From positions 690,001 to 722,000 of the forward strand of contig OZ245049.1 of the NCBI GenBank assembly GCA_965224465.1: a stretch of DNA of 32,000 bases. The letters are read 5' to 3'. The DNA comes from Flavobacteriaceae bacterium. Lineage in GTDB: Bacteria > Bacteroidota > Bacteroidia > Flavobacteriales > Flavobacteriaceae. The notes beneath the pieces are model-generated. The model did no database searches. It was not told the DNA's origin and saw only the letters and a list, made by a program, of their open reading frames with translations. Below are positions 11,909 to 27,775 of the stretch, in pieces. Each line of letters starts with the position of its first letter. Position 1 is the first letter of the stretch. Made by a program: the position numbers and the translations under genes.

Positions 11909-11916
11909 TATATTTG
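11909..11916 (+). promoter_or_regulatory. Candidate -7 box (TATATTTG) for the XRE-SUKH operon
   Basis: Matches TAnnTTTG, 36 nt upstream of ATG 11953. Confidence 0.45.
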
Positions 11917-11952
11917 CAGAAACCATTACAGAATGGCAACAAACAGCATATT

Positions 11953-12300
11953 ATGAGTACAGATTTTGGAAAAAGATTAAAAACAGTAAGAGAAGAGAAA
12001 GGTTTGAAACGTGAGGATATTGCGAAAAAAATAGGAACATCTTCTGCAATTATAGGGCGTTATGAACGTAACGAAAGAACTCCAAATATTGATATTGCTA
12101 AAAATATTGCAGAAGCTCTTGAAGTAAGTCTTGATTATTTAGTGGGTGATACTACAGTATTATTGAAAGACAAGAAAATGCTTTACCGTTTAGAAATTTT
12201 ACAGAAAGTTAGTAGTAGCCAAAAAGATAGGATTTTATATATGTTTGATTTGATGCTCAAAGATGCTCAAAATAATTCTTTGCAAGAGAAATTAGCTTAA
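11953..12300 (+). CDS. XRE/Cro-C1-type HTH regulator
   Basis: ORF 11770-12300 trimmed to ATG 11953 (MSTDFGKRLKTVREEKGLKREDIAKKIGTSSAIIGRYERNER). The longer ORF would overlap the primase start and the promoter region. A TAnnTTTG box lies at 11909-11916. Confidence 0.8.
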   Translation: MSTDFGKRLKTVREEKGLKREDIAKKIGTSSAIIGRYERNERTPNIDIAKNIAEALEVSLDYLVGDTTVLLKDKKMLYRLEILQKVSSSQKDRILYMFDLMLKDAQNNSLQEKLA

Positions 12301-12307
12301 AATTGAT

Positions 12308-12757
12308 ATGGAAAATATATTTGGAAACTTTGATTTAGTACCCGATAATGAAAAAGGGTACATTGAAGAATTGGAAAAGGAATACGGTATTTCACTACCT
12401 CCAATATTTAAAGTATTTTGTCAAACTTTTGTTTTAAACTCTCTTAAGCCAAATGAAAACCACCATATATTTTATCCTGATGAAGAGTTAGGCTTTGATG
12501 GTTTTGAATTTAACCTAAAAGAATTATTAGGATACTATCAAGAAGTAGGGGAACCTCATTCTCAAAGAAAAATGATTCCAATAGCGACTTCATCTCTACA
12601 TTCTGGTGGGATATGTATTTGCTATGACAATCAGAATAAAGATAAAATCTACGTAAATGATGAAATGTCAGATGATGATTTTACACAAGTAGCTACTGAT
12701 ATTCTCGATTTTATCTCGCAAATAGGACAGTTTAATTTTTCAAATAACAATTCTTAA
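12308..12757 (+). CDS. SUKH-1 (SMI1/KNR4-like) immunity protein
   Basis: ORF track, 149 aa. The N-terminus (IEELEKEYGISLPPIFKVFCQTF) is typical of SMI1/KNR4-SUKH immunity proteins. It lies 7 nt after the XRE stop and is convergent with the WHH-type toxin. Confidence 0.7.
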   Translation: MENIFGNFDLVPDNEKGYIEELEKEYGISLPPIFKVFCQTFVLNSLKPNENHHIFYPDEELGFDGFEFNLKELLGYYQEVGEPHSQRKMIPIATSSLHSGGICICYDNQNKDKIYVNDEMSDDDFTQVATDILDFISQIGQFNFSNNNS

Positions 12758-13563
12758 AACCCCATAAATTCAAATAAATCTTGTAACCCTTTTGAAATTA
12801 TTGATTTACCTCCTGAATGATTAAACCCTTTAGGTACACTATGTATAGATGTCTTAACAGGAAATAAAGTTCTCCCATCTTCAAAATGATGCCAAGTATA
12901 TGTCTCCCAATTACCATTCTCAAATAATTGAAATTGCTTTGACATTCCACCTGAATTGGTTTGTGCAATTCTAAAGTTCCCATTAGTCATATAGCCATTA
13001 TTCCAAGGCCAATTACCGCCTGATTTTTCAATCCCAAATTTCTTTGCTAAAGCCGTATTTGCTTGAGTAAAATCCGTTCCTGCACCTGTTAGATTTGGTG
13101 ATTCAAATTTAAACTTGCTTGCAGTTGTTCCATCAGTAAAATTGAGAATGGGTGAATTAGAACGTAAATCCGGCATTCCTTTTTTATAGGTTACAGAAAC
13201 ACTTTGCCCATCAATAACTTTTGTAACAGTATAATCCATCTGACCACCATAACCTTGTGGATGTTTGAGTGTTTTATAGTGATTATCTAATTGTTGAAGT
13301 TTTACGTCAGTAAGATTATCTAATTTAGCCAAGAAAGAAGCATCAGCAACATCATCTAAGCTGTTCACAAAGTTTTTAGCAAAACTTAAATCCCCTAAAG
13401 CATCAAGTTTTGTAATAATTTTAGATTTCCCCACCGTATTAGCCAATTCTTCAACACTATTACTACTTTTTTCAGTTGAAAAAAAAGTATCGTTTGCACT
13501 TAAATTTAGTGTCGAAAAAACACTAAGTACAACTAATAGGAATATTTTAAATTGATTACTCAC
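12754..13563 (-). CDS. Secreted polymorphic toxin, body type B (WHH-type HNH/EndoVII-fold nuclease)
   Basis: The ORF track gives 12754-13572 with a TTG start. I prefer GTG at 13563, which aligns with the GTG start of 5479-6189. Shared leader. The C-terminus TYTWHHFEDGRTLFPVKTSIHSVPKGFNHSGG fits the WHH clade of HNH/EndoVII toxins, which commonly pair with SUKH immunity proteins. Confidence 0.75.
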   Translation of the reverse strand: MSNQFKIFLLVVLSVFSTLNLSANDTFFSTEKSSNSVEELANTVGKSKIITKLDALGDLSFAKNFVNSLDDVADASFLAKLDNLTDVKLQQLDNHYKTLKHPQGYGGQMDYTVTKVIDGQSVSVTYKKGMPDLRSNSPILNFTDGTTASKFKFESPNLTGAGTDFTQANTALAKKFGIEKSGGNWPWNNGYMTNGNFRIAQTNSGGMSKQFQLFENGNWETYTWHHFEDGRTLFPVKTSIHSVPKGFNHSGGKSIISKGLQDLFEFMGF

Positions 13564-14153
13564 AGATGACAAAGGTAACAGTTTTCTTAGTTTTTCTTTT
13601 TCTTCAATTGAAAAAAAAACTAAGGCTTGATTTTTTTATAATTATTGCCTTGTCGAAATGTTGATTTTAAAACTAATGTTCTTGGCAATGATTATGAAAA
13701 AATGAGCATCCAAAGGGGTTTGGGGAATGGAAGATTCCCCATATAAATAAATCCTGCGTAGCAGACCTATTTTTTTAGTGTGTCGGCAAGTGTGGTGGAT
13801 GTGTGGCTATTTTGCATAATACCAGTTATAATGACATTTTTTTCAATTGAAAAGAAAATAATCAACTCGAAAAATGTGCGAAGCGAACTTATAACTTGTA
13901 TTATGTAACTTAGCTTGGGGTTTAATTTTTTGGCATTGCTTTTTGTTCTGTGCGGTGGGGTAGCTGTTTGGTGTTGGCTTTTTTTATTTTCAAAAAAAAC
14001 AATAACAAAGTGCTACTTGTGGAATGGCTTACAAAAACTATGACAAAAAATTAAACAGAAGGGATGGCGAGCGGAACAAAAGGAAACACAAAGGCTTTTT
14101 GCTTTTTCTGCAAAAATTTGGGTTTACTTTTGTGGGGATTTGTGCGGTGGATT
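13439..14153 (-). repeat. Leader + junction region, allele B
   Basis: Palindromes at 13467-13486 (CAGTTG variant, inside the CDS), 13603-13612 and 13842-13851. A degenerate T-run/A-run relic lies at about 13979-13999. Hairpin at 13722-13740. GTGCGGTGG at 13950-13958 and 14142-14150. Confidence 0.8.
13815..13905. repeat. Same 17-bp inverted repeat with a 57-nt loop containing a CAATTG palindrome
   Basis: Arms at 13815-13831 and 13889-13905. Confidence 0.75.
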
Positions 14154-15035
14154 TTATCCCAATGGATGAAACATTTCTATCTGTTTACTAAGGTTTTTCA
14201 TATCCTTATTTCGGTACTTTTCTATATTCCCAACATTTTTATAGCCACTTAAATATTGTGTTTTTCTTAATCCATATAAATCTATCCAAATACCTATTCT
14301 TGATTGTTTGAGCTGGGTTAGTCTTTTGATATTTAGTGCTGGATTTTGTTCTCTAATTGTTTTTACTAATGCTTTTAATTGTTCGTGCACCCTCTGTTCT
14401 TTATTGACATTTGGATGAAATAGTTTTTCGCTTTCTTCTAAACTTACTTTTCCATTTCTTCCTATTCCTCTAAAGTTGGTTATGTAATCGTGTAATGGTA
14501 TTATCTGATTGGCTTCTAATTTTACTACTCTACTATTTTTTCTTCTGATTCCTCCAGGTACTTTTATAATTCCTTTTTCTAAATCTAAATCGTCTAATTC
14601 TAAATTCATTAAATCTTGCTTGTCTAATGCTTGAAAAAGCATTAATCCTAATAGTAATTTATTGCTGTATTTAAAATAACCGTGTTTGGTCTTATCTTGA
14701 TAATTGGTATAGATTTCTTGTAGTTCCTTTTCTGTTAATAGTATGATTTGTTCTTGTGCTACTCCTCTTAATCTTACATTTAAAGCAATATTATCTATCC
14801 TTAAAAAATGGTAATAATGTTCTATTGCTCTAAGGGTTGTATTGATACTTGTTTTTGATTTCTCTTGATTCTGTAAATGTCCTATGTAGTTTAATAGTTG
14901 ATTGTATTTTATGGTTTTTAGGGTTAGTTTATTAAGTTTTAACCAAATTGTAAAAAGTCCTATTCGCATTATAAAACCTTTGATACATTTCTCACTGTAA
15001 TATCTATCAATTAACCATTTTCTGTATTCTTCCAT
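14154..15035 (-). CDS. Second, divergent tyrosine-recombinase-like protein (293-aa type)
   Basis: ORF track. Paralogue of 7355-8296 that lacks the N-terminal extension and the DAQRLLNSSTEAIQN insert. It overlaps the upstream recombinase gene by 25 nt. Confidence 0.8.
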   Translation of the reverse strand: MEEYRKWLIDRYYSEKCIKGFIMRIGLFTIWLKLNKLTLKTIKYNQLLNYIGHLQNQEKSKTSINTTLRAIEHYYHFLRIDNIALNVRLRGVAQEQIILLTEKELQEIYTNYQDKTKHGYFKYSNKLLLGLMLFQALDKQDLMNLELDDLDLEKGIIKVPGGIRRKNSRVVKLEANQIIPLHDYITNFRGIGRNGKVSLEESEKLFHPNVNKEQRVHEQLKALVKTIREQNPALNIKRLTQLKQSRIGIWIDLYGLRKTQYLSGYKNVGNIEKYRNKDMKNLSKQIEMFHPLG

Positions 15036-15862
15036 TCCTCCAATATGTGCGTGTAAATCTGTGTACTATCCAACCTTTTATGACCTAAAAAATTACCGAT
15101 ATATTCTAACTCCATTCCTTGCTGTAAAAGATGTGTTGCAATGCTATGTCTTAAACTGTGTAGACTTGCTTTTTTAGTAATATTGGCTTTATTCATTAAC
15201 TTCTTTAATCTGCTGTTTAAATATTGTCCTGTTACTTGTGGTTTTGTTTTTCCAACTAATAAATAGTTACTTTCTGTATTGATTATCTCCCTTGCAAACT
15301 CAACATATTCTTTTAAATCTGCTATTACTTTTTGAGACATTGGAACATATCTACTTTGATAATTCTTACTTGGTTTTATGTACAATAATCCTTTGTTATA
15401 GTCTATTTCTTTAGGTTCTAAATTAATGCCTTCTTTACTTCTTAATCCACAACCATAGTAGATACTTAGCATTGCTTTATCAAATAAACCACTCGGACTG
15501 TGCCCATCAATTGAAGAAAAAAGTTGTTGTATTTCTAATTGATTAAAGATTACTTTTTCTGTTTTTATTTCTCTTTCTACTATAATTTTATTGACTGCTA
15601 ATTTCTGTTTTTTGGTCTTTTCTAAAAAGGCACTGTATCTATTTATTACGTTAATATGACCTTGTATATATTGTCTACTGGCTTTAGTTTGATGTAGGTC
15701 TTTTATGAAGTTTTCTATCTCTTTTTGATTAGGCTTTCTTTGGTTTAAATACTTGAAAAAATTAGCTAATAATCTTACATATCCTTTGATGGTGCTTTCT
15801 GCATAACCCAATCTTATCAACCAATTCTCAAAGTTTTCTAATTCTTCTTTTAAGTTTATCAT
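15011..15862 (-). CDS. Tyrosine recombinase/integrase, module 3
   Basis: ORF track, 283 aa, with GCGLRSKEG, HSLRHSIATHLL and LGHKRLDSTQIYTHI. The C-terminal tail (EEWKNTENG) differs from modules 1, 2 and 5. Confidence 0.9.
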   Translation of the reverse strand: MINLKEELENFENWLIRLGYAESTIKGYVRLLANFFKYLNQRKPNQKEIENFIKDLHQTKASRQYIQGHINVINRYSAFLEKTKKQKLAVNKIIVEREIKTEKVIFNQLEIQQLFSSIDGHSPSGLFDKAMLSIYYGCGLRSKEGINLEPKEIDYNKGLLYIKPSKNYQSRYVPMSQKVIADLKEYVEFAREIINTESNYLLVGKTKPQVTGQYLNSRLKKLMNKANITKKASLHSLRHSIATHLLQQGMELEYIGNFLGHKRLDSTQIYTHILEEWKNTENG

Positions 15863-15880
15863 CTTGTTTTGTAATTGGGT

Positions 15881-15895
15881 GTCGAACCTTTCGAC
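15881..15895 (-). other. Hairpin GTCGAA-CCT-TTCGAC (compensatory variant of 9166-9180)
   Basis: G to A in the left arm is matched by C to T in the right arm relative to module 2, so pairing is preserved. Confidence 0.5.
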
Positions 15896-15960
15896 AGGGG
15901 GTGCTGTGCATTTTGAGATTTTACTGGGCTACCTTTCTAATTCATTGATATACTTAACTT

Positions 15961-18540
15961 TTAGTTGCCCACTAACAGGGCTGGGCTACTGTGGTTTACT
16001 GGTTCACTGCGGAGAGCCTCCGCTGGCGTATTTTCTTTTCTTATATCTTCCAAAGCCTTATCTAATGCTGTTTCTATACTGTTTTTTAAGTTTTCGTATT
16101 CTTCTGTATTCAATAACTCATACTCGTAACCTCTTGCTCTGTTACCTCCAATTACACTTAAATATCCATATCTGTTTAAGTCTGATAAATGCCTGTTTAA
16201 TGTGGTTGGTGCAAAACGATATGCCTTTCTAATTTCTTTACTGTAAAAACTCTTTTTTTGATATTTAGATAAATACCCTTTAAGTAATTCCAAAAAATCT
16301 CGACACGCTTTTGTTAGTTCATCACTTTTAGCTAATAGTACCGTTTTTAATAGCTTATTGGCTTGTTCTATATCTTCTAAAGTCGTTTCGATATAATAGT
16401 TTCCTTGTTCGTCTTTTTTACGCTCTCGCTGGTATTGATGATAAAATGTTACCGTTTCTATAAAGCTTAAATAATGGGTGTTGGTTCTTAATGGTTTAAA
16501 AACTGTTTCGGGAATATTTAATAGTGTAGCGTAGGGATTTACAACTTTTACTTTCTCTAACAACCATTGTACATCTTTCAAAAATTCCCTGGCGTTATTC
16601 TCTTCTTGCTTGTTGATTTTTCCTGCTGAACTATTTTGTTGATAGCTCATAATTCCCTCTTTTTGTTCTTTTGAATTGTCTAAATAAATGAGTAAACTTC
16701 TGTTGGCATTATCTTCATAAATCTTTTCTTTGGTGGTTGTTCCTGCTAAACAAATTGGTCCTTCTACGGTTAGGGTCACGGTTTTTAGGTTTCCTTTGGC
16801 ATCTTTTATAGGAATAGTTTTACTTATTTTTCGTTTACTCATTAGCTCTCTTATAGCATACAGAATTTTATCATCTTGTGCTCCGTCCAGATCCTCAATT
16901 AGAACTAATTTATTTTTCAGTTCTGTTCTATCAAAATAGTATAAAGCATTTTCGGATAATGCTGTAATTTCTAATTTATGTTCTTCTGGTATCAGGTCTG
17001 ATATTTTTTCTTGTAGGTAGGTTTTCCCTGTTCCACTTGCTCCAAGACTTATAATGTGTAGCGGTTGTTCTCTTAATCTGCTCGTAAAAACCAAATACAT
17101 TAACAAACGATTATCAAACTCTCCAACCATTCCCGTTTTCCCGATTAAATCATTTGTGTTTTGTAGTAAATTCTCTCCTTTTAAGAACTCAATTGCCTTT
17201 TGTTTTCTTAGCTCTGTTAGTTCCCTTAATTTCTTCTTTTGTGGCTTCTGTGAATCAACTTGTCTTAACCTGTAATCTTCTAATAAATTAATCAACTCAA
17301 AAAGGGTGCTTTGTATTTCTCGTGTTCCTAACTCTAACCTTTCGGCTACTTTTCTTATAAATTTCTCCGTTGCATCATCATTGTATAAATCTAAATTACT
17401 TTGTCTAATGTTGTAGATTGGACTTGGATTATCTGTTCTTGTTATTCGTAAGGTTACTTTTAGCTTATCTAAACTGAATAGGTTTATTCCACCTAAAACG
17501 GCTACTAAAATATTGTTGTTTTGATATGTTATGTATTCTGAATTTGTAACATCTAAATTATTGCCTGCAGGTGCTACCTGCTCTGTTATAAATTCAGTTT
17601 CTGAACCAAATAAATTTATTCTTTCATTTATTAAATGCTCTAATATTTCGGAACTATGACTAATTACCAAACTATTTATATCTTCTCCTTGCGGACAATT
17701 AATTTTACTTATTGATAAATTATTGAGTAGTTGGTTTAGTGTTTTAGAATGTTCTTGTATTGCTTTTTCACCTGCTTCATCTCCATCAAAGAAAAATATC
17801 ACTTCTTGTAAATTCTCTATTCTTTTAATCGCCTCCAAGTGCAACTTGGTAAATCCATTTGTTCCATATAAAGCAAGTGTTTCATAGTTGGTATATTTCT
17901 GAAGTGTAGCACTATCAATTATACTTTCTGTAAGGATTATTACTTGTGTTTCTGCAGGTGGATATTTCGGATACAATCCTTTTCTGTTAGCTGTATAATA
18001 ATGCGTTCCTGTTTTGGCTATATTTCTGCCGTAGAGACTTACTATCTCGTTTTGCTCATTTTTGAGTGGGTAAACAATACAGTTTTTGAGTTGTTTAAAT
18101 TGAGTACCATTATTATACCCTTGCTCTAACTTTACATCATAGATTCCTCTTTCTTCTAAATAGGCAATTGCTTTTTTACTTCTGTGTAGGCTTTGTTTGA
18201 ATTTTGGAAATAGCTCTTCAAAATTTACATTCTCTATCTTTTCAAGTTTAGAAGTGCTCGTAATTTTTAATTCATCATTCGTAATTGACAAAAGGCTTTT
18301 CGCCTTTTGTATTGCTTTGTGTTTTGTACATTTCTCAAAATCTTGAATAAACTGTATTACATCTCCTGTTTTATCACAACCAAAACAAGTGTAAGTATTC
18401 GTTTCTGGGTAAATTCTTAAACTTGGTTTATCGTCTTTATGGAAAGGACACAAACAATGCTTGTTTTTATTCATTACAACACTGTACTCGTTTAGTACTG
18501 TAACTATGCTTAATTGCTCTTTAATTTGCTTGATTTCCAT
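15961..18540 (-). CDS. Primase-helicase-like replication protein (tail type 2)
   Basis: ORF track, 859 aa, same domain motifs. Variable linker after the Zn finger. Extra C-terminal residues encoded by a GCGGAG-AGC-CTCCGC hairpin-forming insert. Confidence 0.9.
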   Translation of the reverse strand: MEIKQIKEQLSIVTVLNEYSVVMNKNKHCLCPFHKDDKPSLRIYPETNTYTCFGCDKTGDVIQFIQDFEKCTKHKAIQKAKSLLSITNDELKITSTSKLEKIENVNFEELFPKFKQSLHRSKKAIAYLEERGIYDVKLEQGYNNGTQFKQLKNCIVYPLKNEQNEIVSLYGRNIAKTGTHYYTANRKGLYPKYPPAETQVIILTESIIDSATLQKYTNYETLALYGTNGFTKLHLEAIKRIENLQEVIFFFDGDEAGEKAIQEHSKTLNQLLNNLSISKINCPQGEDINSLVISHSSEILEHLINERINLFGSETEFITEQVAPAGNNLDVTNSEYITYQNNNILVAVLGGINLFSLDKLKVTLRITRTDNPSPIYNIRQSNLDLYNDDATEKFIRKVAERLELGTREIQSTLFELINLLEDYRLRQVDSQKPQKKKLRELTELRKQKAIEFLKGENLLQNTNDLIGKTGMVGEFDNRLLMYLVFTSRLREQPLHIISLGASGTGKTYLQEKISDLIPEEHKLEITALSENALYYFDRTELKNKLVLIEDLDGAQDDKILYAIRELMSKRKISKTIPIKDAKGNLKTVTLTVEGPICLAGTTTKEKIYEDNANRSLLIYLDNSKEQKEGIMSYQQNSSAGKINKQEENNAREFLKDVQWLLEKVKVVNPYATLLNIPETVFKPLRTNTHYLSFIETVTFYHQYQRERKKDEQGNYYIETTLEDIEQANKLLKTVLLAKSDELTKACRDFLELLKGYLSKYQKKSFYSKEIRKAYRFAPTTLNRHLSDLNRYGYLSVIGGNRARGYEYELLNTEEYENLKNSIETALDKALEDIRKENTPAEALRSEPVNHSSPALLVGN

Positions 18541-18574
18541 ACTCTAAAATATTTGGTTGTTAATTTCAACACCA

Positions 18575-18582
18575 CAAATATA
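18575..18582 (-). promoter_or_regulatory. Candidate -7 box (TATATTTG on the minus strand) for the primase operon
   Basis: Matches TAnnTTTG, about 34 nt upstream of the primase ATG (18540). Confidence 0.4.
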
Positions 18583-18655
18583 AAATATAGTTTCGATAAT
18601 AAAAACATAAATGTTTTTTAAATCAATACATTTTTGATAATATTTCTATTTAAGC

Positions 18656-18663
18656 TACTTTTG
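18656..18663 (+). promoter_or_regulatory. Candidate -7 box (TACTTTTG) for the XRE gene
   Basis: Matches TAnnTTTG only 4 nt before ATG 18668, which would imply a leaderless or near-leaderless mRNA. Confidence 0.4.
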
Positions 18664-18667
18664 TGTT

Positions 18668-19033
18668 ATGGATTTAGCAGAAAACATTAAAGCAATTAGA
18701 GAAGAAAAGGGTTTAAAACAGATTGAAGTAGCTGATTATATTGGTGTTGATAAATCCGCTTATAGTAAAATTGAAAAAGGTTCTCGTTCTTTGGCTATTG
18801 AGGAACTTCAAAAAATGGCACAGCTCTTTAATCTGACTACTGACCAAATTCTTAACTATGATGGTAACATACCTAAAGAGGTAACCATTGAAGATAAAAC
18901 CGCAGTAGAGCAAATGAGGTTGATACAAGAATTAGATGAAGAGGATAAACAAACTGTCTTTAAAATAATTGATAAGATGCTTACTACTAAGAAATTTAAA
19001 GACTTCTTTAATAAAAATGTAGCTACGCTTTGA
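18668..19033 (+). CDS. XRE/Cro-C1-type HTH regulator
   Basis: ORF track, 121 aa (IREEKGLKQIEVADYIGVDKSAYSKIEKGSR). Divergent from the primase gene. Confidence 0.85.
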   Translation: MDLAENIKAIREEKGLKQIEVADYIGVDKSAYSKIEKGSRSLAIEELQKMAQLFNLTTDQILNYDGNIPKEVTIEDKTAVEQMRLIQELDEEDKQTVFKIIDKMLTTKKFKDFFNKNVATL

Positions 19034-19129
19034 TTTTTATTTAGAATAAATATAAATTAAGTGTTTCTTACGATACAGTAAATATGCCTTATAGGTAGCA
19101 AATGTGCTATATAGGTGTCAAAGTTATTT

Positions 19130-19570
19130 TTAAGATAATTCGTTAAAGGAATTTTCATCTATAATAGTTTTTCCATCAACAAGAAGTAGCGCATTCAAAT
19201 GATTTGCCATTTTAAAAAAAATGTTTAAATCTTCTAATTTAGGAGTTCGTTCAAAATTTATACTTATCCAATTATTCCTTGAACTAAATCCTACATTAAT
19301 ATCATAATACCCTTTTTTGTCATTAAACTCAGCATAACAACTAACCTTATTTAAACTACCTAAAACACGCTCTCTGAAACCTTCTGGAACATTATCTATA
19401 TCCTTTAGTATTTCTATGCCATCTTTAGTATTTTCTTTCCAAATAAACTCACTCAAATGACTCTCAACAAAATCTACCCATTTTTCATAGTTTAAGGGTA
19501 ATGACTGAGTAAATACATCATCAATTGTGTTTATTGCTATTCTTAAATCTGTATTTCGGCTTAGTTTCAT
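19130..19570 (-). CDS. Putative immunity protein (family not recognised)
   Basis: ORF track, 146 aa. Its ATG overlaps the toxin stop by 1 nt (TAATG). No signal peptide visible. The call rests on position. Confidence 0.55.
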   Translation of the reverse strand: MKLSRNTDLRIAINTIDDVFTQSLPLNYEKWVDFVESHLSEFIWKENTKDGIEILKDIDNVPEGFRERVLGSLNKVSCYAEFNDKKGYYDINVGFSSRNNWISINFERTPKLEDLNIFFKMANHLNALLLVDGKTIIDENSFNELS

Positions 19571-20226
19571 TAGTTTATAAAATCTTCAAGTGCTTTAATT
19601 TCAAAAGTTATATCAGGATCAACTGTATTAAGTTTATTCATCCATTCCGTTTTCAATGTTGGCGTTATACTGGCTTTAGGCATATAGACATCAATTTTAG
19701 CATTTGTAATAAACATTGTTTTCCCATTGCTCACGAGACCTGTTGAAGGGTCTAGACCTTCTTTTAGAAATTTAATATTTTTCTGCATTGGTGCTGACGC
19801 TAACCAAGTATCAACATTTGTTGAAATAGTCGTTTTCATAGAAACAGCTGTATTTGCAAAAATTTGATTTGCTGTTTCTGTCCCTTTGTAAAAATCGATT
19901 CCTTTAAAGTTAAATGATATATCTCCTGTATGAAGCCACCCAGATGATTTAGTGTAACGATATTGTCCCATTACATCTTCAAAGAAACTTCTACCACCTA
20001 ACATATCAGGTATAGGATATTTCGTTTTCCAAATATCGTCTATGTGTTTAAGCTTATCAGATAAGGACTTGCTAATGAAGCCAGCCAAATCATCCACCGA
20101 GTTAGCCAATTCTTCAACACTATTACTACTTTTTTCAGTTGAAAAAAAAGTATCGTTTGCACTTAAATTTAGTGTCGAAAAAACACTAAGTACAACTAAT
20201 AGGAATATTTTAAATTGATTACTCAC
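19570..20226 (-). CDS. Secreted polymorphic toxin, body type C (possible PD-(D/E)xK-like nuclease)
   Basis: The ORF track gives 19570-20235 (TTG). GTG at 20226 is preferred by alignment with the paralogues. Shared leader. The body has GGRSFFEDV...GIDFY...AVSMKT, read by eye as E...D...SxK; the nuclease call is weak. Confidence 0.65.
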   Translation of the reverse strand: MSNQFKIFLLVVLSVFSTLNLSANDTFFSTEKSSNSVEELANSVDDLAGFISKSLSDKLKHIDDIWKTKYPIPDMLGGRSFFEDVMGQYRYTKSSGWLHTGDISFNFKGIDFYKGTETANQIFANTAVSMKTTISTNVDTWLASAPMQKNIKFLKEGLDPSTGLVSNGKTMFITNAKIDVYMPKASITPTLKTEWMNKLNTVDPDITFEIKALEDFIN

Positions 20227-20816
20227 AGATGACAAAGGTAACAGTTTTCTTAGTTTTTCTTTTTCTTCAATTGAAAAAAAAACTAAGGCTTGATTTTTTT
20301 ATAATTATTGCCTTGTCGAAATGTTGATTTTAAAACTAATGTTCTTGGCAATGATTATGAAAAAATGAGCATCCAAAGGGGTTTGGGGAATGGAAGATTC
20401 CCCATATAAATAAATCCTGCGTAGCAGACCTATTTTTTTAGTGTGTCGGCAAGTGTGGTGGATGTGTGGCTATTTTGCATAATACCAGTTATAATGACAT
20501 TTTTTTCAATTGAAAAGAAAATAATCAACTCGAAAAATGTGCGAAGCGAACTTATAACTTGTATTATGTAACTTAGCTTGGGGTTTAATTTTTTGGCATT
20601 GCTTTTTGTTCTGTGCGGTGGGGTAGCTGTTTGGTGTTGGCTTTTTTTATTTTCAAAAAAAACAATAACAAAGTGCTACTTGTGGAATGGCTTACAAAAA
20701 CTATGACAAAAAATTAAACAGAAGGGATGGCGAGCGGAACAAAAGGAAACACAAAGGCTTTTTGCTTTTTCTGCAAAAATTTGGGTTTACTTTTGTGGGG
20801 ATTTGTGCGGTGGATT
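20102..20816 (-). repeat. Leader + junction region, allele B (duplicate)
   Basis: Same as 13439-14153 at +6663. Palindromes at 20130-20149, 20266-20275 and 20505-20514. Hairpin at 20385-20403. Confidence 0.8.
20478..20568. repeat. Same 17-bp inverted repeat (duplicate of 13815-13905)
   Basis: Offset 6663. Confidence 0.75.
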
Positions 20817-21698
20817 TTATCCCAATGGATGAAACATTTCTATCTGTTTACTAAGGTTTTTCATATCCTTATTTCGGTACTTTTCTATATTCCCAACATT
20901 TTTATAGCCACTTAAATATTGTGTTTTTCTTAATCCATATAAATCTATCCAAATACCTATTCTTGATTGTTTGAGCTGGGTTAGTCTTTTGATATTTAGT
21001 GCTGGATTTTGTTCTCTAATTGTTTTTACTAATGCTTTTAATTGTTCGTGCACCCTCTGTTCTTTATTGACATTTGGATGAAATAGTTTTTCGCTTTCTT
21101 CTAAACTTACTTTTCCATTTCTTCCTATTCCTCTAAAGTTGGTTATGTAATCGTGTAATGGTATTATCTGATTGGCTTCTAATTTTACTACTCTACTATT
21201 TTTTCTTCTGATTCCTCCAGGTACTTTTATAATTCCTTTTTCTAAATCTAAATCGTCTAATTCTAAATTCATTAAATCTTGCTTGTCTAATGCTTGAAAA
21301 AGCATTAATCCTAATAGTAATTTATTGCTGTATTTAAAATAACCGTGTTTGGTCTTATCTTGATAATTGGTATAGATTTCTTGTAGTTCCTTTTCTGTTA
21401 ATAGTATGATTTGTTCTTGTGCTACTCCTCTTAATCTTACATTTAAAGCAATATTATCTATCCTTAAAAAATGGTAATAATGTTCTATTGCTCTAAGGGT
21501 TGTATTGATACTTGTTTTTGATTTCTCTTGATTCTGTAAATGTCCTATGTAGTTTAATAGTTGATTGTATTTTATGGTTTTTAGGGTTAGTTTATTAAGT
21601 TTTAACCAAATTGTAAAAAGTCCTATTCGCATTATAAAACCTTTGATACATTTCTCACTGTAATATCTATCAATTAACCATTTTCTGTATTCTTCCAT
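20817..21698 (-). CDS. Second, divergent tyrosine-recombinase-like protein (293-aa type), duplicate copy
   Basis: Translation identical to 14154-15035 (offset 6663). Confidence 0.8.
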   Translation of the reverse strand: MEEYRKWLIDRYYSEKCIKGFIMRIGLFTIWLKLNKLTLKTIKYNQLLNYIGHLQNQEKSKTSINTTLRAIEHYYHFLRIDNIALNVRLRGVAQEQIILLTEKELQEIYTNYQDKTKHGYFKYSNKLLLGLMLFQALDKQDLMNLELDDLDLEKGIIKVPGGIRRKNSRVVKLEANQIIPLHDYITNFRGIGRNGKVSLEESEKLFHPNVNKEQRVHEQLKALVKTIREQNPALNIKRLTQLKQSRIGIWIDLYGLRKTQYLSGYKNVGNIEKYRNKDMKNLSKQIEMFHPLG

Positions 21699-22525
21699 TC
21701 CTCCAATATGTGCGTGTAAATCTGTGTACTATCCAACCTTTTATGACCTAAAAAATTACCGATATATTCTAACTCCATTCCTTGCTGTAAAAGATGTGTT
21801 GCAATGCTATGTCTTAAACTGTGTAGACTTGCTTTTTTAGTAATATTGGCTTTATTCATTAACTTCTTTAATCTGCTGTTTAAATATTGTCCTGTTACTT
21901 GTGGTTTTGTTTTTCCAACTAATAAATAGTTACTTTCTGTATTGATTATCTCCCTTGCAAACTCAACATATTCTTTTAAATCTGCTATTACTTTTTGAGA
22001 CATTGGAACATATCTACTTTGATAATTCTTACTTGGTTTTATGTACAATAATCCTTTGTTATAGTCTATTTCTTTAGGTTCTAAATTAATGCCTTCTTTA
22101 CTTCTTAATCCACAACCATAGTAGATACTTAGCATTGCTTTATCAAATAAACCACTCGGACTGTGCCCATCAATTGAAGAAAAAAGTTGTTGTATTTCTA
22201 ATTGATTAAAGATTACTTTTTCTGTTTTTATTTCTCTTTCTACTATAATTTTATTGACTGCTAATTTCTGTTTTTTGGTCTTTTCTAAAAAGGCACTGTA
22301 TCTATTTATTACGTTAATATGACCTTGTATATATTGTCTACTGGCTTTAGTTTGATGTAGGTCTTTTATGAAGTTTTCTATCTCTTTTTGATTAGGCTTT
22401 CTTTGGTTTAAATACTTGAAAAAATTAGCTAATAATCTTACATATCCTTTGATGGTGCTTTCTGCATAACCCAATCTTATCAACCAATTCTCAAAGTTTT
22501 CTAATTCTTCTTTTAAGTTTATCAT
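21674..22525 (-). CDS. Tyrosine recombinase/integrase, module 4 (duplicate of module 3)
   Basis: Translation identical to 15011-15862. Confidence 0.9.
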   Translation of the reverse strand: MINLKEELENFENWLIRLGYAESTIKGYVRLLANFFKYLNQRKPNQKEIENFIKDLHQTKASRQYIQGHINVINRYSAFLEKTKKQKLAVNKIIVEREIKTEKVIFNQLEIQQLFSSIDGHSPSGLFDKAMLSIYYGCGLRSKEGINLEPKEIDYNKGLLYIKPSKNYQSRYVPMSQKVIADLKEYVEFAREIINTESNYLLVGKTKPQVTGQYLNSRLKKLMNKANITKKASLHSLRHSIATHLLQQGMELEYIGNFLGHKRLDSTQIYTHILEEWKNTENG

Positions 22526-22543
22526 CTTGTTTTGTAATTGGGT

Positions 22544-22558
22544 GTCGAACCTTTCGAC
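22544..22558 (-). other. Hairpin (duplicate of 15881-15895)
   Basis: Offset 6663. Confidence 0.5.
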
Positions 22559-22623
22559 AGGGGGTGCTGTGCATTTTGAGATTTTACTGGGCTACCTTTC
22601 TAATTCATTGATATACTTAACTT

Positions 22624-25203
22624 TTAGTTGCCCACTAACAGGGCTGGGCTACTGTGGTTTACTGGTTCACTGCGGAGAGCCTCCGCTGGCGTATTTTCTT
22701 TTCTTATATCTTCCAAAGCCTTATCTAATGCTGTTTCTATACTGTTTTTTAAGTTTTCGTATTCTTCTGTATTCAATAACTCATACTCGTAACCTCTTGC
22801 TCTGTTACCTCCAATTACACTTAAATATCCATATCTGTTTAAGTCTGATAAATGCCTGTTTAATGTGGTTGGTGCAAAACGATATGCCTTTCTAATTTCT
22901 TTACTGTAAAAACTCTTTTTTTGATATTTAGATAAATACCCTTTAAGTAATTCCAAAAAATCTCGACACGCTTTTGTTAGTTCATCACTTTTAGCTAATA
23001 GTACCGTTTTTAATAGCTTATTGGCTTGTTCTATATCTTCTAAAGTCGTTTCGATATAATAGTTTCCTTGTTCGTCTTTTTTACGCTCTCGCTGGTATTG
23101 ATGATAAAATGTTACCGTTTCTATAAAGCTTAAATAATGGGTGTTGGTTCTTAATGGTTTAAAAACTGTTTCGGGAATATTTAATAGTGTAGCGTAGGGA
23201 TTTACAACTTTTACTTTCTCTAACAACCATTGTACATCTTTCAAAAATTCCCTGGCGTTATTCTCTTCTTGCTTGTTGATTTTTCCTGCTGAACTATTTT
23301 GTTGATAGCTCATAATTCCCTCTTTTTGTTCTTTTGAATTGTCTAAATAAATGAGTAAACTTCTGTTGGCATTATCTTCATAAATCTTTTCTTTGGTGGT
23401 TGTTCCTGCTAAACAAATTGGTCCTTCTACGGTTAGGGTCACGGTTTTTAGGTTTCCTTTGGCATCTTTTATAGGAATAGTTTTACTTATTTTTCGTTTA
23501 CTCATTAGCTCTCTTATAGCATACAGAATTTTATCATCTTGTGCTCCGTCCAGATCCTCAATTAGAACTAATTTATTTTTCAGTTCTGTTCTATCAAAAT
23601 AGTATAAAGCATTTTCGGATAATGCTGTAATTTCTAATTTATGTTCTTCTGGTATCAGGTCTGATATTTTTTCTTGTAGGTAGGTTTTCCCTGTTCCACT
23701 TGCTCCAAGACTTATAATGTGTAGCGGTTGTTCTCTTAATCTGCTCGTAAAAACCAAATACATTAACAAACGATTATCAAACTCTCCAACCATTCCCGTT
23801 TTCCCGATTAAATCATTTGTGTTTTGTAGTAAATTCTCTCCTTTTAAGAACTCAATTGCCTTTTGTTTTCTTAGCTCTGTTAGTTCCCTTAATTTCTTCT
23901 TTTGTGGCTTCTGTGAATCAACTTGTCTTAACCTGTAATCTTCTAATAAATTAATCAACTCAAAAAGGGTGCTTTGTATTTCTCGTGTTCCTAACTCTAA
24001 CCTTTCGGCTACTTTTCTTATAAATTTCTCCGTTGCATCATCATTGTATAAATCTAAATTACTTTGTCTAATGTTGTAGATTGGACTTGGATTATCTGTT
24101 CTTGTTATTCGTAAGGTTACTTTTAGCTTATCTAAACTGAATAGGTTTATTCCACCTAAAACGGCTACTAAAATATTGTTGTTTTGATATGTTATGTATT
24201 CTGAATTTGTAACATCTAAATTATTGCCTGCAGGTGCTACCTGCTCTGTTATAAATTCAGTTTCTGAACCAAATAAATTTATTCTTTCATTTATTAAATG
24301 CTCTAATATTTCGGAACTATGACTAATTACCAAACTATTTATATCTTCTCCTTGCGGACAATTAATTTTACTTATTGATAAATTATTGAGTAGTTGGTTT
24401 AGTGTTTTAGAATGTTCTTGTATTGCTTTTTCACCTGCTTCATCTCCATCAAAGAAAAATATCACTTCTTGTAAATTCTCTATTCTTTTAATCGCCTCCA
24501 AGTGCAACTTGGTAAATCCATTTGTTCCATATAAAGCAAGTGTTTCATAGTTGGTATATTTCTGAAGTGTAGCACTATCAATTATACTTTCTGTAAGGAT
24601 TATTACTTGTGTTTCTGCAGGTGGATATTTCGGATACAATCCTTTTCTGTTAGCTGTATAATAATGCGTTCCTGTTTTGGCTATATTTCTGCCGTAGAGA
24701 CTTACTATCTCGTTTTGCTCATTTTTGAGTGGGTAAACAATACAGTTTTTGAGTTGTTTAAATTGAGTACCATTATTATACCCTTGCTCTAACTTTACAT
24801 CATAGATTCCTCTTTCTTCTAAATAGGCAATTGCTTTTTTACTTCTGTGTAGGCTTTGTTTGAATTTTGGAAATAGCTCTTCAAAATTTACATTCTCTAT
24901 CTTTTCAAGTTTAGAAGTGCTCGTAATTTTTAATTCATCATTCGTAATTGACAAAAGGCTTTTCGCCTTTTGTATTGCTTTGTGTTTTGTACATTTCTCA
25001 AAATCTTGAATAAACTGTATTACATCTCCTGTTTTATCACAACCAAAACAAGTGTAAGTATTCGTTTCTGGGTAAATTCTTAAACTTGGTTTATCGTCTT
25101 TATGGAAAGGACACAAACAATGCTTGTTTTTATTCATTACAACACTGTACTCGTTTAGTACTGTAACTATGCTTAATTGCTCTTTAATTTGCTTGATTTC
25201 CAT
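22624..25203 (-). CDS. Primase-helicase-like replication protein (duplicate of module 3)
   Basis: Translation identical to 15961-18540. Confidence 0.9.
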   Translation of the reverse strand: MEIKQIKEQLSIVTVLNEYSVVMNKNKHCLCPFHKDDKPSLRIYPETNTYTCFGCDKTGDVIQFIQDFEKCTKHKAIQKAKSLLSITNDELKITSTSKLEKIENVNFEELFPKFKQSLHRSKKAIAYLEERGIYDVKLEQGYNNGTQFKQLKNCIVYPLKNEQNEIVSLYGRNIAKTGTHYYTANRKGLYPKYPPAETQVIILTESIIDSATLQKYTNYETLALYGTNGFTKLHLEAIKRIENLQEVIFFFDGDEAGEKAIQEHSKTLNQLLNNLSISKINCPQGEDINSLVISHSSEILEHLINERINLFGSETEFITEQVAPAGNNLDVTNSEYITYQNNNILVAVLGGINLFSLDKLKVTLRITRTDNPSPIYNIRQSNLDLYNDDATEKFIRKVAERLELGTREIQSTLFELINLLEDYRLRQVDSQKPQKKKLRELTELRKQKAIEFLKGENLLQNTNDLIGKTGMVGEFDNRLLMYLVFTSRLREQPLHIISLGASGTGKTYLQEKISDLIPEEHKLEITALSENALYYFDRTELKNKLVLIEDLDGAQDDKILYAIRELMSKRKISKTIPIKDAKGNLKTVTLTVEGPICLAGTTTKEKIYEDNANRSLLIYLDNSKEQKEGIMSYQQNSSAGKINKQEENNAREFLKDVQWLLEKVKVVNPYATLLNIPETVFKPLRTNTHYLSFIETVTFYHQYQRERKKDEQGNYYIETTLEDIEQANKLLKTVLLAKSDELTKACRDFLELLKGYLSKYQKKSFYSKEIRKAYRFAPTTLNRHLSDLNRYGYLSVIGGNRARGYEYELLNTEEYENLKNSIETALDKALEDIRKENTPAEALRSEPVNHSSPALLVGN

Positions 25204-25237
25204 ACTCTAAAATATTTGGTTGTTAATTTCAACACCA

Positions 25238-25245
25238 CAAATATA
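25238..25245 (-). promoter_or_regulatory. Candidate -7 box (duplicate of 18575-18582)
   Basis: Offset 6663. Confidence 0.4.
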
Positions 25246-25318
25246 AAATATAGTTTCGATAATAAAAACATAAATGTTTTTTAAATCAATACATTTTTGA
25301 TAATATTTCTATTTAAGC

Positions 25319-25326
25319 TACTTTTG
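25319..25326 (+). promoter_or_regulatory. Candidate -7 box (duplicate of 18656-18663)
   Basis: Offset 6663. Confidence 0.4.
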
Positions 25327-25330
25327 TGTT

Positions 25331-25696
25331 ATGGATTTAGCAGAAAACATTAAAGCAATTAGAGAAGAAAAGGGTTTAAAACAGATTGAAGTAGCTGATT
25401 ATATTGGTGTTGATAAATCCGCTTATAGTAAAATTGAAAAAGGTTCTCGTTCTTTGGCTATTGAGGAACTTCAAAAAATGGCACAGCTCTTTAATCTGAC
25501 TACTGACCAAATTCTTAACTATGATGGTAACATACCTAAAGAGGTAACCATTGAAGATAAAACCGCAGTAGAGCAAATGAGGTTGATACAAGAATTAGAT
25601 GAAGAGGATAAACAAACTGTCTTTAAAATAATTGATAAGATGCTTACTACTAAGAAATTTAAAGACTTCTTTAATAAAAATGTAGCTACGCTTTGA
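25331..25696 (+). CDS. XRE/Cro-C1-type HTH regulator (duplicate)
   Basis: Translation identical to 18668-19033. Confidence 0.85.
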   Translation: MDLAENIKAIREEKGLKQIEVADYIGVDKSAYSKIEKGSRSLAIEELQKMAQLFNLTTDQILNYDGNIPKEVTIEDKTAVEQMRLIQELDEEDKQTVFKIIDKMLTTKKFKDFFNKNVATL

Positions 25697-25792
25697 TTTT
25701 TATTTAGAATAAATATAAATTAAGTGTTTCTTACGATACAGTAAATATGCCTTATAGGTAGCAAATGTGCTATATAGGTGTCAAAGTTATTT

Positions 25793-26233
25793 TTAAGATA
25801 ATTCGTTAAAGGAATTTTCATCTATAATAGTTTTTCCATCAACAAGAAGTAGCGCATTCAAATGATTTGCCATTTTAAAAAAAATGTTTAAATCTTCTAA
25901 TTTAGGAGTTCGTTCAAAATTTATACTTATCCAATTATTCCTTGAACTAAATCCTACATTAATATCATAATACCCTTTTTTGTCATTAAACTCAGCATAA
26001 CAACTAACCTTATTTAAACTACCTAAAACACGCTCTCTGAAACCTTCTGGAACATTATCTATATCCTTTAGTATTTCTATGCCATCTTTAGTATTTTCTT
26101 TCCAAATAAACTCACTCAAATGACTCTCAACAAAATCTACCCATTTTTCATAGTTTAAGGGTAATGACTGAGTAAATACATCATCAATTGTGTTTATTGC
26201 TATTCTTAAATCTGTATTTCGGCTTAGTTTCAT
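25793..26233 (-). CDS. Putative immunity protein (duplicate)
   Basis: Translation identical to 19130-19570. Confidence 0.55.
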   Translation of the reverse strand: MKLSRNTDLRIAINTIDDVFTQSLPLNYEKWVDFVESHLSEFIWKENTKDGIEILKDIDNVPEGFRERVLGSLNKVSCYAEFNDKKGYYDINVGFSSRNNWISINFERTPKLEDLNIFFKMANHLNALLLVDGKTIIDENSFNELS

Positions 26234-26889
26234 TAGTTTATAAAATCTTCAAGTGCTTTAATTTCAAAAGTTATATCAGGATCAACTGTATTAAGTTTAT
26301 TCATCCATTCCGTTTTCAATGTTGGCGTTATACTGGCTTTAGGCATATAGACATCAATTTTAGCATTTGTAATAAACATTGTTTTCCCATTGCTCACGAG
26401 ACCTGTTGAAGGGTCTAGACCTTCTTTTAGAAATTTAATATTTTTCTGCATTGGTGCTGACGCTAACCAAGTATCAACATTTGTTGAAATAGTCGTTTTC
26501 ATAGAAACAGCTGTATTTGCAAAAATTTGATTTGCTGTTTCTGTCCCTTTGTAAAAATCGATTCCTTTAAAGTTAAATGATATATCTCCTGTATGAAGCC
26601 ACCCAGATGATTTAGTGTAACGATATTGTCCCATTACATCTTCAAAGAAACTTCTACCACCTAACATATCAGGTATAGGATATTTCGTTTTCCAAATATC
26701 GTCTATGTGTTTAAGCTTATCAGATAAGGACTTGCTAATGAAGCCAGCCAAATCATCCACCGTATTAGCCAATTCGTCAACACTATCACTACTTTTTTCA
26801 ATTGAAAAAAAAGTGTCGTTTGCACTCAAATTTAGTGTCGAAAAAACACTAAGTACAACTAATAGAAATATTTTAAATTGATTACTCAC
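26233..26889 (-). CDS. Secreted polymorphic toxin, body type C behind a different leader allele
   Basis: The body is identical to 19570-20226 up to ..VDDLAGF. The leader differs (FFSIEKSSDSVDELANT vs FFSTEKSSNSVEELANS). ORF-track entry 26233-27027 is trimmed to the conserved GTG at 26889. Confidence 0.65.
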   Translation of the reverse strand: MSNQFKIFLLVVLSVFSTLNLSANDTFFSIEKSSDSVDELANTVDDLAGFISKSLSDKLKHIDDIWKTKYPIPDMLGGRSFFEDVMGQYRYTKSSGWLHTGDISFNFKGIDFYKGTETANQIFANTAVSMKTTISTNVDTWLASAPMQKNIKFLKEGLDPSTGLVSNGKTMFITNAKIDVYMPKASITPTLKTEWMNKLNTVDPDITFEIKALEDFIN

Positions 26890-27496
26890 AGATGACAAAG
26901 GTAACAGTTTTCTTAGTTTTTCTTTTTCTTCAATTGAAAAAAAATAAACGCAAGATTTTAAGGCTTGATTTTTTGTAATTAATGCCTTGTCGAATTTTTT
27001 GTTTTTTAGAAGAATGCTTCTTGGCATTGATTACAAAAAATGAGCATCCAAAGGGGTTTGGGGAATGGAAGATTCCCCATATAAATCAATCCTGCGTAGC
27101 AGACTTATTATTTTTTTGTGCGGTGGGGAATGGTGGAAGTGTGGCTATTTTGCATAATACCAGTTATAACGACCTTTTTTTTCAATTGAAAATCAATTAA
27201 TAAAGTCAAAAAAATGTGCGTAGCGAACTTATAACTTGTATTATGTTACTTAGCTTGGGGTGGTTTTTATGGCGGATTTTTTGCTTTTGTGCGGTGGCAC
27301 AGCTCTTTGGATTTTCTTTTTTTCAATTGAAAATAAAAACGATAAAAAAGAAAATACAATGTGCTGTTTTTGCGGTGGGTTGCAGAAAGTGTGACATAAA
27401 AACCACAGAAGGGTTGGCGTGCGGAACAACATAAAGCACAAAGGCTTTTTGCTTTTTCTGCAAAAGTTTGGGTTTTATGTTGTGGGGATTGGTCGG
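26765..27496 (-). repeat. Leader + junction region, allele D (chimeric; right part identical to allele A)
   Basis: Palindromes at 26793-26812 (inside the CDS), 26929-26938, 27181-27190 and 27322-27331. Hairpin at 27060-27078. GTGCGGTGG at 27118-27126 and 27289-27297, and TGCGGTGG at 27371-27378. Confidence 0.8.
27153..27245. repeat. Same 17-bp inverted repeat with a 59-nt loop (third loop allele, contains CAATTG)
   Basis: Arms at 27153-27169 and 27229-27245. Confidence 0.75.
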
Positions 27497-27775
27497 TTAT
27501 TTCTCTCCATAATGAGAATGTGCATTTAGTACATAAACTGTAACTATTTCTTCATTTATAGAATACACTAATCGGTGTTTATGGTTGATTCTTCTTGAAT
27601 ACAATCCTTTTAAATTATGTTTCAACATTTCGGGTTGTCCTGTTCCTGTTGTTGGGTGTTCCATTAATTCAGTTAATAATTTCTGTAACTTCTTTAAAAT
27701 TGATTTATCTCCTACTTTTTTATGTTTCTCAATATCTTCTAAAGCGGTTTTAGAAAATTCTAATTTATAACTCAT
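27497..27775 (-). CDS. yoeB: YoeB/Txe-family toxin (second copy)
   Basis: Translation identical to 6765-7043 (offset 20732). Confidence 0.88.
   Translation of the reverse strand: MSYKLEFSKTALEDIEKHKKVGDKSILKKLQKLLTELMEHPTTGTGQPEMLKHNLKGLYSRRINHKHRLVYSINEEIVTVYVLNAHSHYGEK

Follow-up and report, generated by a model that had tools for sequence, protein, structure and literature searches.

The DNA analyzed here, hereafter the window, comprises 32,000 nucleotides (positions 690001–722000) of the single 5.24-Mb contig OZ245049.1 of a Flavobacteriaceae bacterium (GenBank assembly GCA_965224465.1; approximately 31% G+C). The window lies within an array of nine units that extends over 66 kb, from approximately 680.2 kb to 746.4 kb, downstream of a gene for a polymorphic toxin of 1827 amino acids (aa), the 3′ part of which is the site of the array. 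Our main subject is unit c of this array, a putative integrative element of 6663 bp that is present in two head-to-tail copies, c1 and c2. Every unit contains genes for two Xer-like recombinases, of which one is complete and the other degenerate, and for a primase-helicase. In the 1827-aa protein, the boundary to the tip reads ...RLLAN|TVGD..., and ten tips stand in a row at the locus. The displaced tips each have a start codon and a signal-peptide leader, and they are separated from one another by the primase and recombinase genes. The recognizable cargo of the neighboring units comprises nucleases of the WHH and AHH types and immunity proteins of the SUKH type (with the WHH nuclease) and the Imm49 type, and a YoeB/Phd toxin-antitoxin pair is present in some units. 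Neither the nine-unit array nor the 1827-aa head gene was within view of the preliminary description of this DNA.

On the minus strand, unit c consists of tip c, an immunity gene, a helix-turn-helix (HTH) gene, the primase-helicase gene, the recombinase genes int1 and int2, a non-coding region and a leader. All of the genes are located on the minus strand except for the HTH gene, which is on the plus strand. The leader makes up codons 1 to 45 of the toxin gene that follows and encodes a Sec-type signal peptide followed by a linker that ends in E-E-L-A-N. The c1 toxin is composed of a Sec-type leader supplied by copy c2 (20102–20235) and of tip c (175 aa), and the toxin gene of unit d forms the right-hand flank of the c dimer.

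A base-by-base comparison showed that positions 13439–20099 of the window are identical to positions 20102–26762, with no mismatches and no insertions or deletions over 6661 bp and with a period of 6663 bp. The only differences between the two 6663-bp copies are located at 20100–20101 (AG) and 26763–26764 (TA; plus-strand letters), and the two bases to the left of copy c1, 13437–13438, are likewise TA. To the left of 13439, where tip d is compared with tip c, the identity falls to the background level within a few bases, with the exception of CCACCG. The next unit, to the right of 26764, has a leader that is 83% identical to leader c, and the first mismatch is found at the twelfth base (T/G). 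The edges of the repeat are the exact ends of the toxin leaders (...E-E-L-A-N|). A preliminary description had portrayed this region as a perfect and very recent tandem duplication of 6663 bp, the edges of which fall on the boundary between leader and tip and the sole change of which is AG versus TA at the seam, next to CCACCG. The exact self-alignment that it had called for revealed no scattered mismatches (6661 of 6661 bp identical, the remaining two nucleotides being at the end of the unit), and all of these features were confirmed.

Among the exact direct repeats of the genome, the c1/c2 repeat ranks third by size, and the largest is a second near-perfect doublet, e1/e2, within the same array. 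An exact repeat of 6.6 kb cannot arise by chance. Since the copies are perfect, we conclude that the duplication is recent. At an assumed rate of 1e-6 to 1e-7 substitutions per site per year, the finding of 0 differences in 6661 bp corresponds to a 95% upper age bound of roughly 225 to 2250 years, an apparent age that could be too young if gene conversion has homogenized c1 and c2.

All ten junctions of the array, read on the minus strand, follow the pattern TTGGCT(A/G)A-NN-(C/G)(G/A)G(G/T)GG, that is TTGGCTRA-NN-SRGKGG, which translates into L-A-N or L-A-E followed by the first residues of the tip. The genome contains 11 copies of this core consensus, as compared to 0.36 expected; ten of these are the array junctions and one is located in a second tip locus at 641–649 kb. 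The sequence is TTGGCTAA-NN-CGGTGG at all three junctions of the c copies (Table 1). In the center unit, the leader is purely that of c to within 11 nt of the seam, and on the tip side of the seam, tip c and tip d share CGGTGG only. The interval of exchange is at most 19 bp, CCACCG-NN-TTAGCCAATTC, and corresponds to the core that is common to all junctions. Units c and b′ have 45 exact tracts of at least 20 bp in common (1554 bp in total, the longest being 257 bp), none of which was used, and no hybrid leader or hybrid body was seen at the c|c seam. An exchange within at most 19 bp despite the 45 longer shared tracts makes an unequal crossover between leaders unlikely, and we do not retain the earlier suggestion that it is an equal alternative. 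The proposal that this site is where the units join is supported by all ten junctions and by relatives elsewhere that break at the same core. The stronger claim, that the duplication is direct evidence for the addition of units at the site, goes too far: the seam establishes an attP-type joint at the core, but a second copy could also enter by homologous recombination anywhere within the resident copy.

The presence of the same core at all junctions, and of relatives that pair the core with other partners, leads us to consider the unit an integrative element with its attachment site in frame between leader and tip. By the same comparisons, the array would represent serial insertions into the tip boundary of the polymorphic toxin gene. 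Over 756 bp, the big gene and the first unit downstream of it have the same tip sequence (100% identity), and the match stops 8 bases into TTGGCTAA.

The variable dinucleotide of the core provides information about the history of the seam. On the minus strand, the three junctions read leader b′-TA-tip c (outer), leader c-CT-tip c (center) and leader c-TA-tip d (outer). An independent metagenome contig, L065, is 98% identical at the DNA level to tip c and its immunity gene, has a different leader, and reads GCTAA-CT-CGGTGGAT at the junction. In L024, a Flavobacteriaceae metagenome-assembled genome (MAG), TTGGCTAA-TA-CGGTGGGG is located before a d-like tip. Because L065 carries CT before the same tip, CT is taken to be native to tip c, and because L024 carries TA before a d-like tip, TA is taken to be native to d-type tips. 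The center seam thereby looks like an untouched attP-type joint, and the altered junction looks like the outer one of c2 (26763–26764). The native status of AG (plus strand) at the seam and the altered TA at 26763–26764 had been missed previously. The opposite assignment, with TA in attP and CT in attB, was ruled out by the presence of CT with tip c in L065 and of TA with d-type tips in L024. Across the junctions, the dinucleotide can be TA, TG, CG, CT or GG, and both CT and TA occur next to tip c. In 13.3 kb, there are only two differences, and both are located inside the core, which thus is marked as recombinationally active. To judge from the junction sequences, the center joint is not derivable from the present outer junctions as they stand.

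The search for relatives showed that perfect doublets are not restricted to this genome. In L024, the big toxin reads ...N-N-L-A-N|T-V-G-K, with a d-like tip, and is followed by an element and then by a leader joined to another tip, with the same core; L017 and L031 have similar layouts. An exact doublet of 7766 bp with 0 mismatches was identified in a Flavobacterium MAG. Its seam falls between adjacent bases with no shared sequence (zero-bp ambiguity), the primase is only 38% identical and the head gene is Rhs-like. In locus L077 (G041:C32, positions 1582–17113), from a Flavobacterium MAG, the element type is located behind a multi-gene Rhs-like locus, and the leader imitates the terminal part of the Rhs core (…QMWL|xIDPLAEK). 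It thus appears that, within the family, leader and core are adapted to the toxin class that is targeted. A long-read MAG of the Cytophagales contains an exact doublet with a period of 8071 bp and an 18-bp core at all three junctions, along with a second neighboring pair that is 99.3% identical. The contig CBDDKS010000002.1 (L025 and L039; 19638 bp) consists solely of 2.5 perfect units of 7941 bp from a related Rhs-targeting element, and the units differ by deletions of 329 bp and 157 bp beside the junction, at the leader/promoter region. This contig is binned as Kangiellaceae; the element resembles that of the Cytophagales MAG (82–97% DNA identity by segment) and the binning is doubtful. Across these genomes, perfect doublets bounded at a lineage-specific core emerge as a recurrent feature of the family. 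No close DNA relatives were found among 40 related genomes, and no circular contig or terminal overlap was found among the related loci.

Within the array, doublets are also frequent. Like-tip pairs stand side by side for four of the five tip types, and a random order of the nine units gives all four pairs with P = 120/22680 = 0.005. The copies c1/c2 are 100% identical (6661 bp compared), e1/e2 differ by one mismatch (7567 bp compared), a/a′ are 98.5% identical (6.3 kb compared) and b/b′ are 93.6% identical (5.9 kb compared). The e1/e2 doublet covers window positions 1–6064 and the DNA upstream thereof (genome 680929–698561) with a period of 7569 bp and 2.33 copies; the single mismatch is C at genome position 681725 versus T at 689294, and the identity runs 2497 bp further into unit d. 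Units d and b′, which are not adjacent, have in common an exact block of 1867 bp (window 6497–8363 and 27229–29095), which contains the upstream region, the YoeB/Phd pair, int2 and the start of int1. The block is indicative of gene conversion, or of recombinant units, inside the array.

We consider it fairly probable that c1 and c2 are a tandem dimer of a small integrative element of 6663 bp, formed at the core by the recombinases of the element itself. The center seam looks like an attP-type joint made by these recombinases. The attachment core of approximately 16 bp, TTGGCTRA-NN-SRGKGG, would separate, in frame, the leader from the tip within the element and the delivery part from the tip within the target gene. 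Integration would then place a new tip on the big toxin, and the old tip would be kept expressed behind the leader of the element. The element is probably self-replicating, and replication of the excised form by the primase-helicase would give extra copies. A second copy could be added when another circle integrates into attL or attR, when a dimeric circle integrates, or when attL and attR on sister chromosomes undergo exchange. We infer cleavage of the core by int1 and int2, the existence of a circular form that replicates, and the use of one of these three site-specific routes. Taken together, the results suggest that the family is still adding copies by site-specific recombination.

Some of the observations weigh against formation of the dimer by the recombinases. 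The order TA/CT/TA (outer, center, outer) is unobtainable by one conservative exchange from any parental pair. We modeled conservative exchanges between a CT attP and a TA attB, with the dinucleotide to the left of, to the right of, or inside a staggered overlap, and every model called for one additional event at the c2 outer junction, for instance the repair of mismatches in a heteroduplex overlap, or the arrival and later departure of a TA-type element. Since all models need the extra event, the dinucleotide cannot choose between the site-specific routes. Furthermore, the exact blocks in non-adjacent units show that homologous exchange operates in the array, and e1/e2 are explained equally well by a homologous crossover, given the identical flank of 2.5 kb. 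Finally, recombinase activity, cleavage at the core and the attP circle are putative for all members of the family, and the copy number is that of the assembled sequence.

A more far-reaching version of the recombinase model is that perfect tandem dimers are the normal functional state of this element family. The dinucleotide would then lie in a heterology-tolerant overlap, so that the junctions record the last partner, and the family would diversify toxins by a copy-and-keep process. The central attP-type joint would allow one unit to be freed as a circle, by the recombinases or by homologous exchange, and the freed circle would be replicated by the primase-helicase while the other copy stays in the toxin gene, by analogy with the tandem prophages that CTX-phi requires. 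We offer this as a tentative idea that is more easily doubted than accepted. If true, it would mean that a dedicated site-specific copy-and-keep system diversifies secreted and Rhs-type toxins across the Bacteroidota.

The rival explanation that survives best, although we consider it unlikely, is a homologous integration of the Campbell type, in which a free circular c, either a new arrival or an excised and replicated copy, recombines by means of RecA anywhere in the 6.6 kb of identity with the resident copy and the seam is the attP of the circle; the core would then play no part in the duplication as such. It predicts the observed structure exactly, including the perfect copies and the central attP with the native CT, and it would also account for like-tip units being neighbors. 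The 2497-bp e2/d identity and the exact 1867-bp d/b′ block show that homologous exchange is active in the array. However, a circle with an attP from site-specific recombination would still be needed, which makes this explanation a variant of the recombinase-made dimer, and the TA at the outer junction of c2 is left unexplained. Sequence by itself does not separate the two.

We regard it as improbable that the second copy is an assembly artifact, in which reads from a circular or plasmid form, or a miscounted repeat, caused one chromosomal c to be written as two. The seam CT is absent from both outer junctions (TA and TA); the center joint is thus not derivable from them, which counts against an artifact from a circle excised from the present single resident copy. 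The single 5.24-Mb contig resolves a 66-kb array of units that are 82–100% identical, and the neighboring e1/e2 doublet is separated by a single distinguishing base. On the other hand, the copy number of a perfect tandem repeat of 6.6 kb is easily miscounted by assemblers, and perfect doublets were also observed in MAGs, where a graph loop of chromosome plus circle could create them. Even in the case of an artifact, the attP-type joint would still physically exist, which implies an active element.

An unequal homologous crossover on sister chromosomes, between the leaders or other homologous parts of neighboring units and without any recombinase, is very improbable for c1/c2. The exchange would need an 11-bp tract when 45 tracts of 20–257 bp were available, and a hybrid leader or body would be expected. 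Moreover, both parental junctions are TA, which predicts TA at the seam, but CT was found, and the equivalent seam in the Flavobacterium MAG shares no bases. The similarity on which such a crossover could act is nevertheless considerable, 83% over approximately 710 bp for the leader and upstream region of c versus b′ and 82% over 4.4 kb for the bodies, and e1/e2 may have originated in this manner. Least credible of all is a recombinase-independent microhomology duplication, by template switching or slippage between CCACCGTATTAGCCAATTC direct repeats flanking a single c: bacteria frequently form tandem duplications between short repeats and identical 19-bp direct repeats do flank the dimer, but the seam should then be TA like the flanking repeats rather than CT, a coincidence with the core used at all ten junctions is required, and relatives with different cores show the same type of doublet.

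A dimer made by the recombinases of the element has parallels among known tandem arrays. Lambda polylysogens are tandem arrays formed by site-specific routes of this kind. The same has been described for the tandem arrays of SXT/R391, SGI1, ICEclc and ICESt1 (PMC5812530, PMC2297512), including, as cited in the first of these, the SXT/R391 arrays at prfC (Burrus & Waldor 2004, PMC387804). As in the arrays formed by ICEs (integrative and conjugative elements) and by lambda, the elements here encode their own tyrosine recombinase and are stacked head-to-tail with attP-type joints, an attachment core is regenerated at each junction, and homologous remodeling into hybrids follows later. Among the features of accretion, an own tyrosine recombinase, the same core at the outer and inner junctions, and a crossover confined to the core are found; excision to a circle and recombinase-dependent integration would be predicted. 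In contrast to the ICE and lambda arrays, the units are only 6.7–8 kb in size and lack genes for conjugation or packaging, the target is the in-frame boundary between delivery part and tip of a toxin gene rather than a tRNA gene or the end of a housekeeping gene, each integration rewires two toxin genes, and there are two Xer-like proteins, one of which is degenerate.

The displacement of C-terminal regions and arrays of orphan tip/immunity pairs are known from Rhs, CdiA and MafB, according to the account of Jackson et al. 2009 (PMC2935791) given in PMC13183296. As in these systems, the locus consists of a large toxin with a conserved motif before the tip, a variable tip and an immunity gene, with displaced pairs in a row behind it. 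Rhs and CdiA orphans have no start codon or export signal of their own and no intervening mobility genes, whereas the displaced tips here obtain a start codon, a signal peptide and a promoter from the element. The exchange also takes place at a core of approximately 16 bp, and not by homologous recombination in a conserved region.

Tolerance for heterology in the overlap region has been described for the CTnDOT/NBU-type integrases of the Bacteroidota (PMC2034462, PMC2817482). The present system resembles IntDOT in belonging to the same phylum and in having a variable dinucleotide in the apparent crossover region, between conserved bases, which seemingly is inherited from either partner. By profile, however, int1 is similar to Xer and integron integrases rather than to IntDOT. 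CTX-phi and the integrative mobile elements exploiting Xer (IMEX) form tandem prophage arrays by using XerC/XerD at dif, and CTX-phi needs tandem prophages. A Xer-type pair and tandem arrays are common to those elements and to this one, as is a possible role of tandem copies in yielding a mobile form while an integrated copy is kept. The difference is that the recombinases here are encoded by the element in every unit rather than by the host, that the target is a toxin gene rather than dif, and that there are no phage genes. The combination of an integrase, an HTH regulator and a primase-helicase is characteristic of P4-like satellites and of islands of the phage-inducible chromosomal island (PICI) type. 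Unit c shares with them the size range and the minimal gene set for integration and replication, but no genes for capsid redirection or packaging were recognized, the cargo is a secreted toxin tip with an immunity gene, and the attachment site is inside a coding sequence that is kept in frame. An integron has a single platform integrase, an attI site and promoterless attC cassettes, whereas here two recombinases, a primase and a promoter region belong to each unit, and the junction core is inside a coding sequence.

Both the tandem accretion of integrative elements and arrays of orphan tips are well known, and it is their combination that appears to be new. This combination appears to consist of an element of 6.7–8 kb with its own Xer-like pair and primase-helicase, in-frame insertion at the tip boundary, a leader for the displaced tip, and frequent perfect dimers. 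A literature search yielded no description of the element family, which does not prove that none exists. Polymorphic toxins such as Rhs, CdiA and their relatives swap tips and leave orphans behind, and the exchange is usually ascribed to homologous recombination; to our knowledge, no dedicated machinery for tip exchange has been described. The array points to tip exchange by a small mobile element that brings the recombinases, a replication protein and a leader behind which the displaced tip is still expressed. Of all the evidence in the array, the perfect dimer is the sharpest single item, mapping the exchange to at most 19 bp. Since the dimer is recent, the exchange process is probably still active, and the perfect doublets in distant relatives suggest that the doubling of copies occurs regularly in the family. 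With an element of 6.7 kb, a site of 16 bp and two recombinase genes, the system is also amenable to experiments.

The individual features of the c dimer and its surroundings are listed in Table 1. Tip c had no match in Pfam, NCBIfam or the PDB sequences. Its AlphaFold model is of moderate quality (predicted local distance difference test score, pLDDT, 65.6), and a Foldseek search with the model returned nothing below E = 0.02. The top matches, which were weak and non-significant, were PD-(D/E)xK nucleases, a hint that tip c may possibly be a nuclease of this kind. The adjacent gene was assigned as the immunity gene since its position matches that of the Imm49 and SUKH immunity genes of the neighboring units. 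The putative immunity protein had no family match in Pfam or NCBIfam, and a look-up of the exact protein in public assemblies gave nothing on record.

The primase-helicase contains a CHC2 zinc ribbon, a Toprim domain and a C-terminal P-loop with the Walker A motif GASGTGKT, the latter identified from an alignment. In an alignment to 4a8e (XerC-like), the catalytic set of int1 is complete (R, HxxR, H and Y), and its NCBIfam matches are to XerA/XerD/XerC. When int2 was aligned to 4a8e, QALDKQDL was placed opposite AGLRVSEL with an Asp at the Arg-I position, and the C-terminal motif aligned poorly, which suggests that int2 probably is a non-catalytic partner of int1. The non-coding region of approximately 0.58 kb (13573–14153) contains no open reading frame (ORF), tRNA or Rfam family, and presumably holds the promoter and the protein-binding boxes of the leader-tip gene. 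In the whole window, neither a tRNA gene nor an Rfam family was found that could serve as an integration target. The sequence CGGTGG had raised the idea of a double-glycine bacteriocin leader, which was rejected because the translation gives a Sec-type signal peptide and an E-L-A-N boundary.

Table 1. Features of the c1/c2 dimer, its junctions and the flanking toxin genes (window positions unless marked as genome positions).
Feature	Position	Strand	Remarks
Copy c1 of the 6663-bp unit	13439–20101	−	Identical to 20102–26764 except for the last two bases
Copy c2 of the 6663-bp unit	20102–26764	−	Same comparison
Outer junction of c1, attR-type, leader c + tip d	13431–13446	−	TTGGCTAA-TA-CGGTGG; TA apparently native to d-type tips
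Center seam, attP-type, leader c in frame with tip c	20094–20109	−	TTGGCTAA-CT-CGGTGG; E-L-A-N-S-V
Outer junction of c2, attL-type, leader b′ + tip c	26757–26772	−	TTGGCTAA-TA-CGGTGG; apparently non-native dinucleotide
Toxin gene of c1, 221 aa	19570–20235	−	Translation
Toxin gene of c2, same tip c behind leader of unit b′	26233–26898	−	ORF open up to 27027
Putative immunity protein of tip c, 146 aa	19130–19570; second copy 25793–26233	−	Start overlaps toxin stop
XRE-type HTH regulator, divergent from primase gene	18668–19033; second copy 25331–25696	+	Pfam HTH_3, E = 5.8e-17
Primase-helicase, 859 aa	15961–18540; second copy 22624–25203	−	DnaG-type matches in Pfam and NCBIfam
int1, Xer-like tyrosine recombinase	15011–15862; second copy 21674–22525	−	Pfam Phage_integrase, E = 1.5e-35
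int2, second Xer-like protein, overlaps int1	14154–15035; second copy 20817–21698	−	Pfam, E = 1.2e-7; NCBIfam Xer-type
Non-coding region upstream of leader, approximately 0.58 kb	13573–14153; second copy 20236–20816	−	76–87% conserved among units
Toxin of unit d, 272 aa, leader from c1 + WHH nuclease tip	12754–13572	−	Pfam WHH, E = 2.1e-7
1827-aa toxin gene	Genome 746418–751901	−	Fibronectin-type domains, HExxH motif, AHH nuclease tip

Elsewhere in the genome, at approximately 3564000–3584000, there are three head-to-tail copies with a period of approximately 8504 bp, each with an IS110-type transposase gene; the triplicate resembles rRNA operons, as judged only from typical spurious ORFs. The second tip locus (genome 641600–649300, 41–48 kb before the window) is free of the element and of mobility genes. 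It contains two orphan toxins with a different leader of approximately 100 aa that ends in YLAN/YLAE, and a fragment of 264 aa whose sequence is the same as that of the 1827-aa toxin at its pre-tip end. This fragment is fused to a tip of the WHH type, accompanied by a SUKH gene, and beside the fusion there are a degenerate leader, a YoeB/Phd pair and an IS66-type gene. At the far end of the array, immediately beyond the last tip/immunity pair (tip f, 680213–681051), transposase genes and a fragment of a group II intron-type reverse transcriptase gene are located at genome positions 675300–679600.

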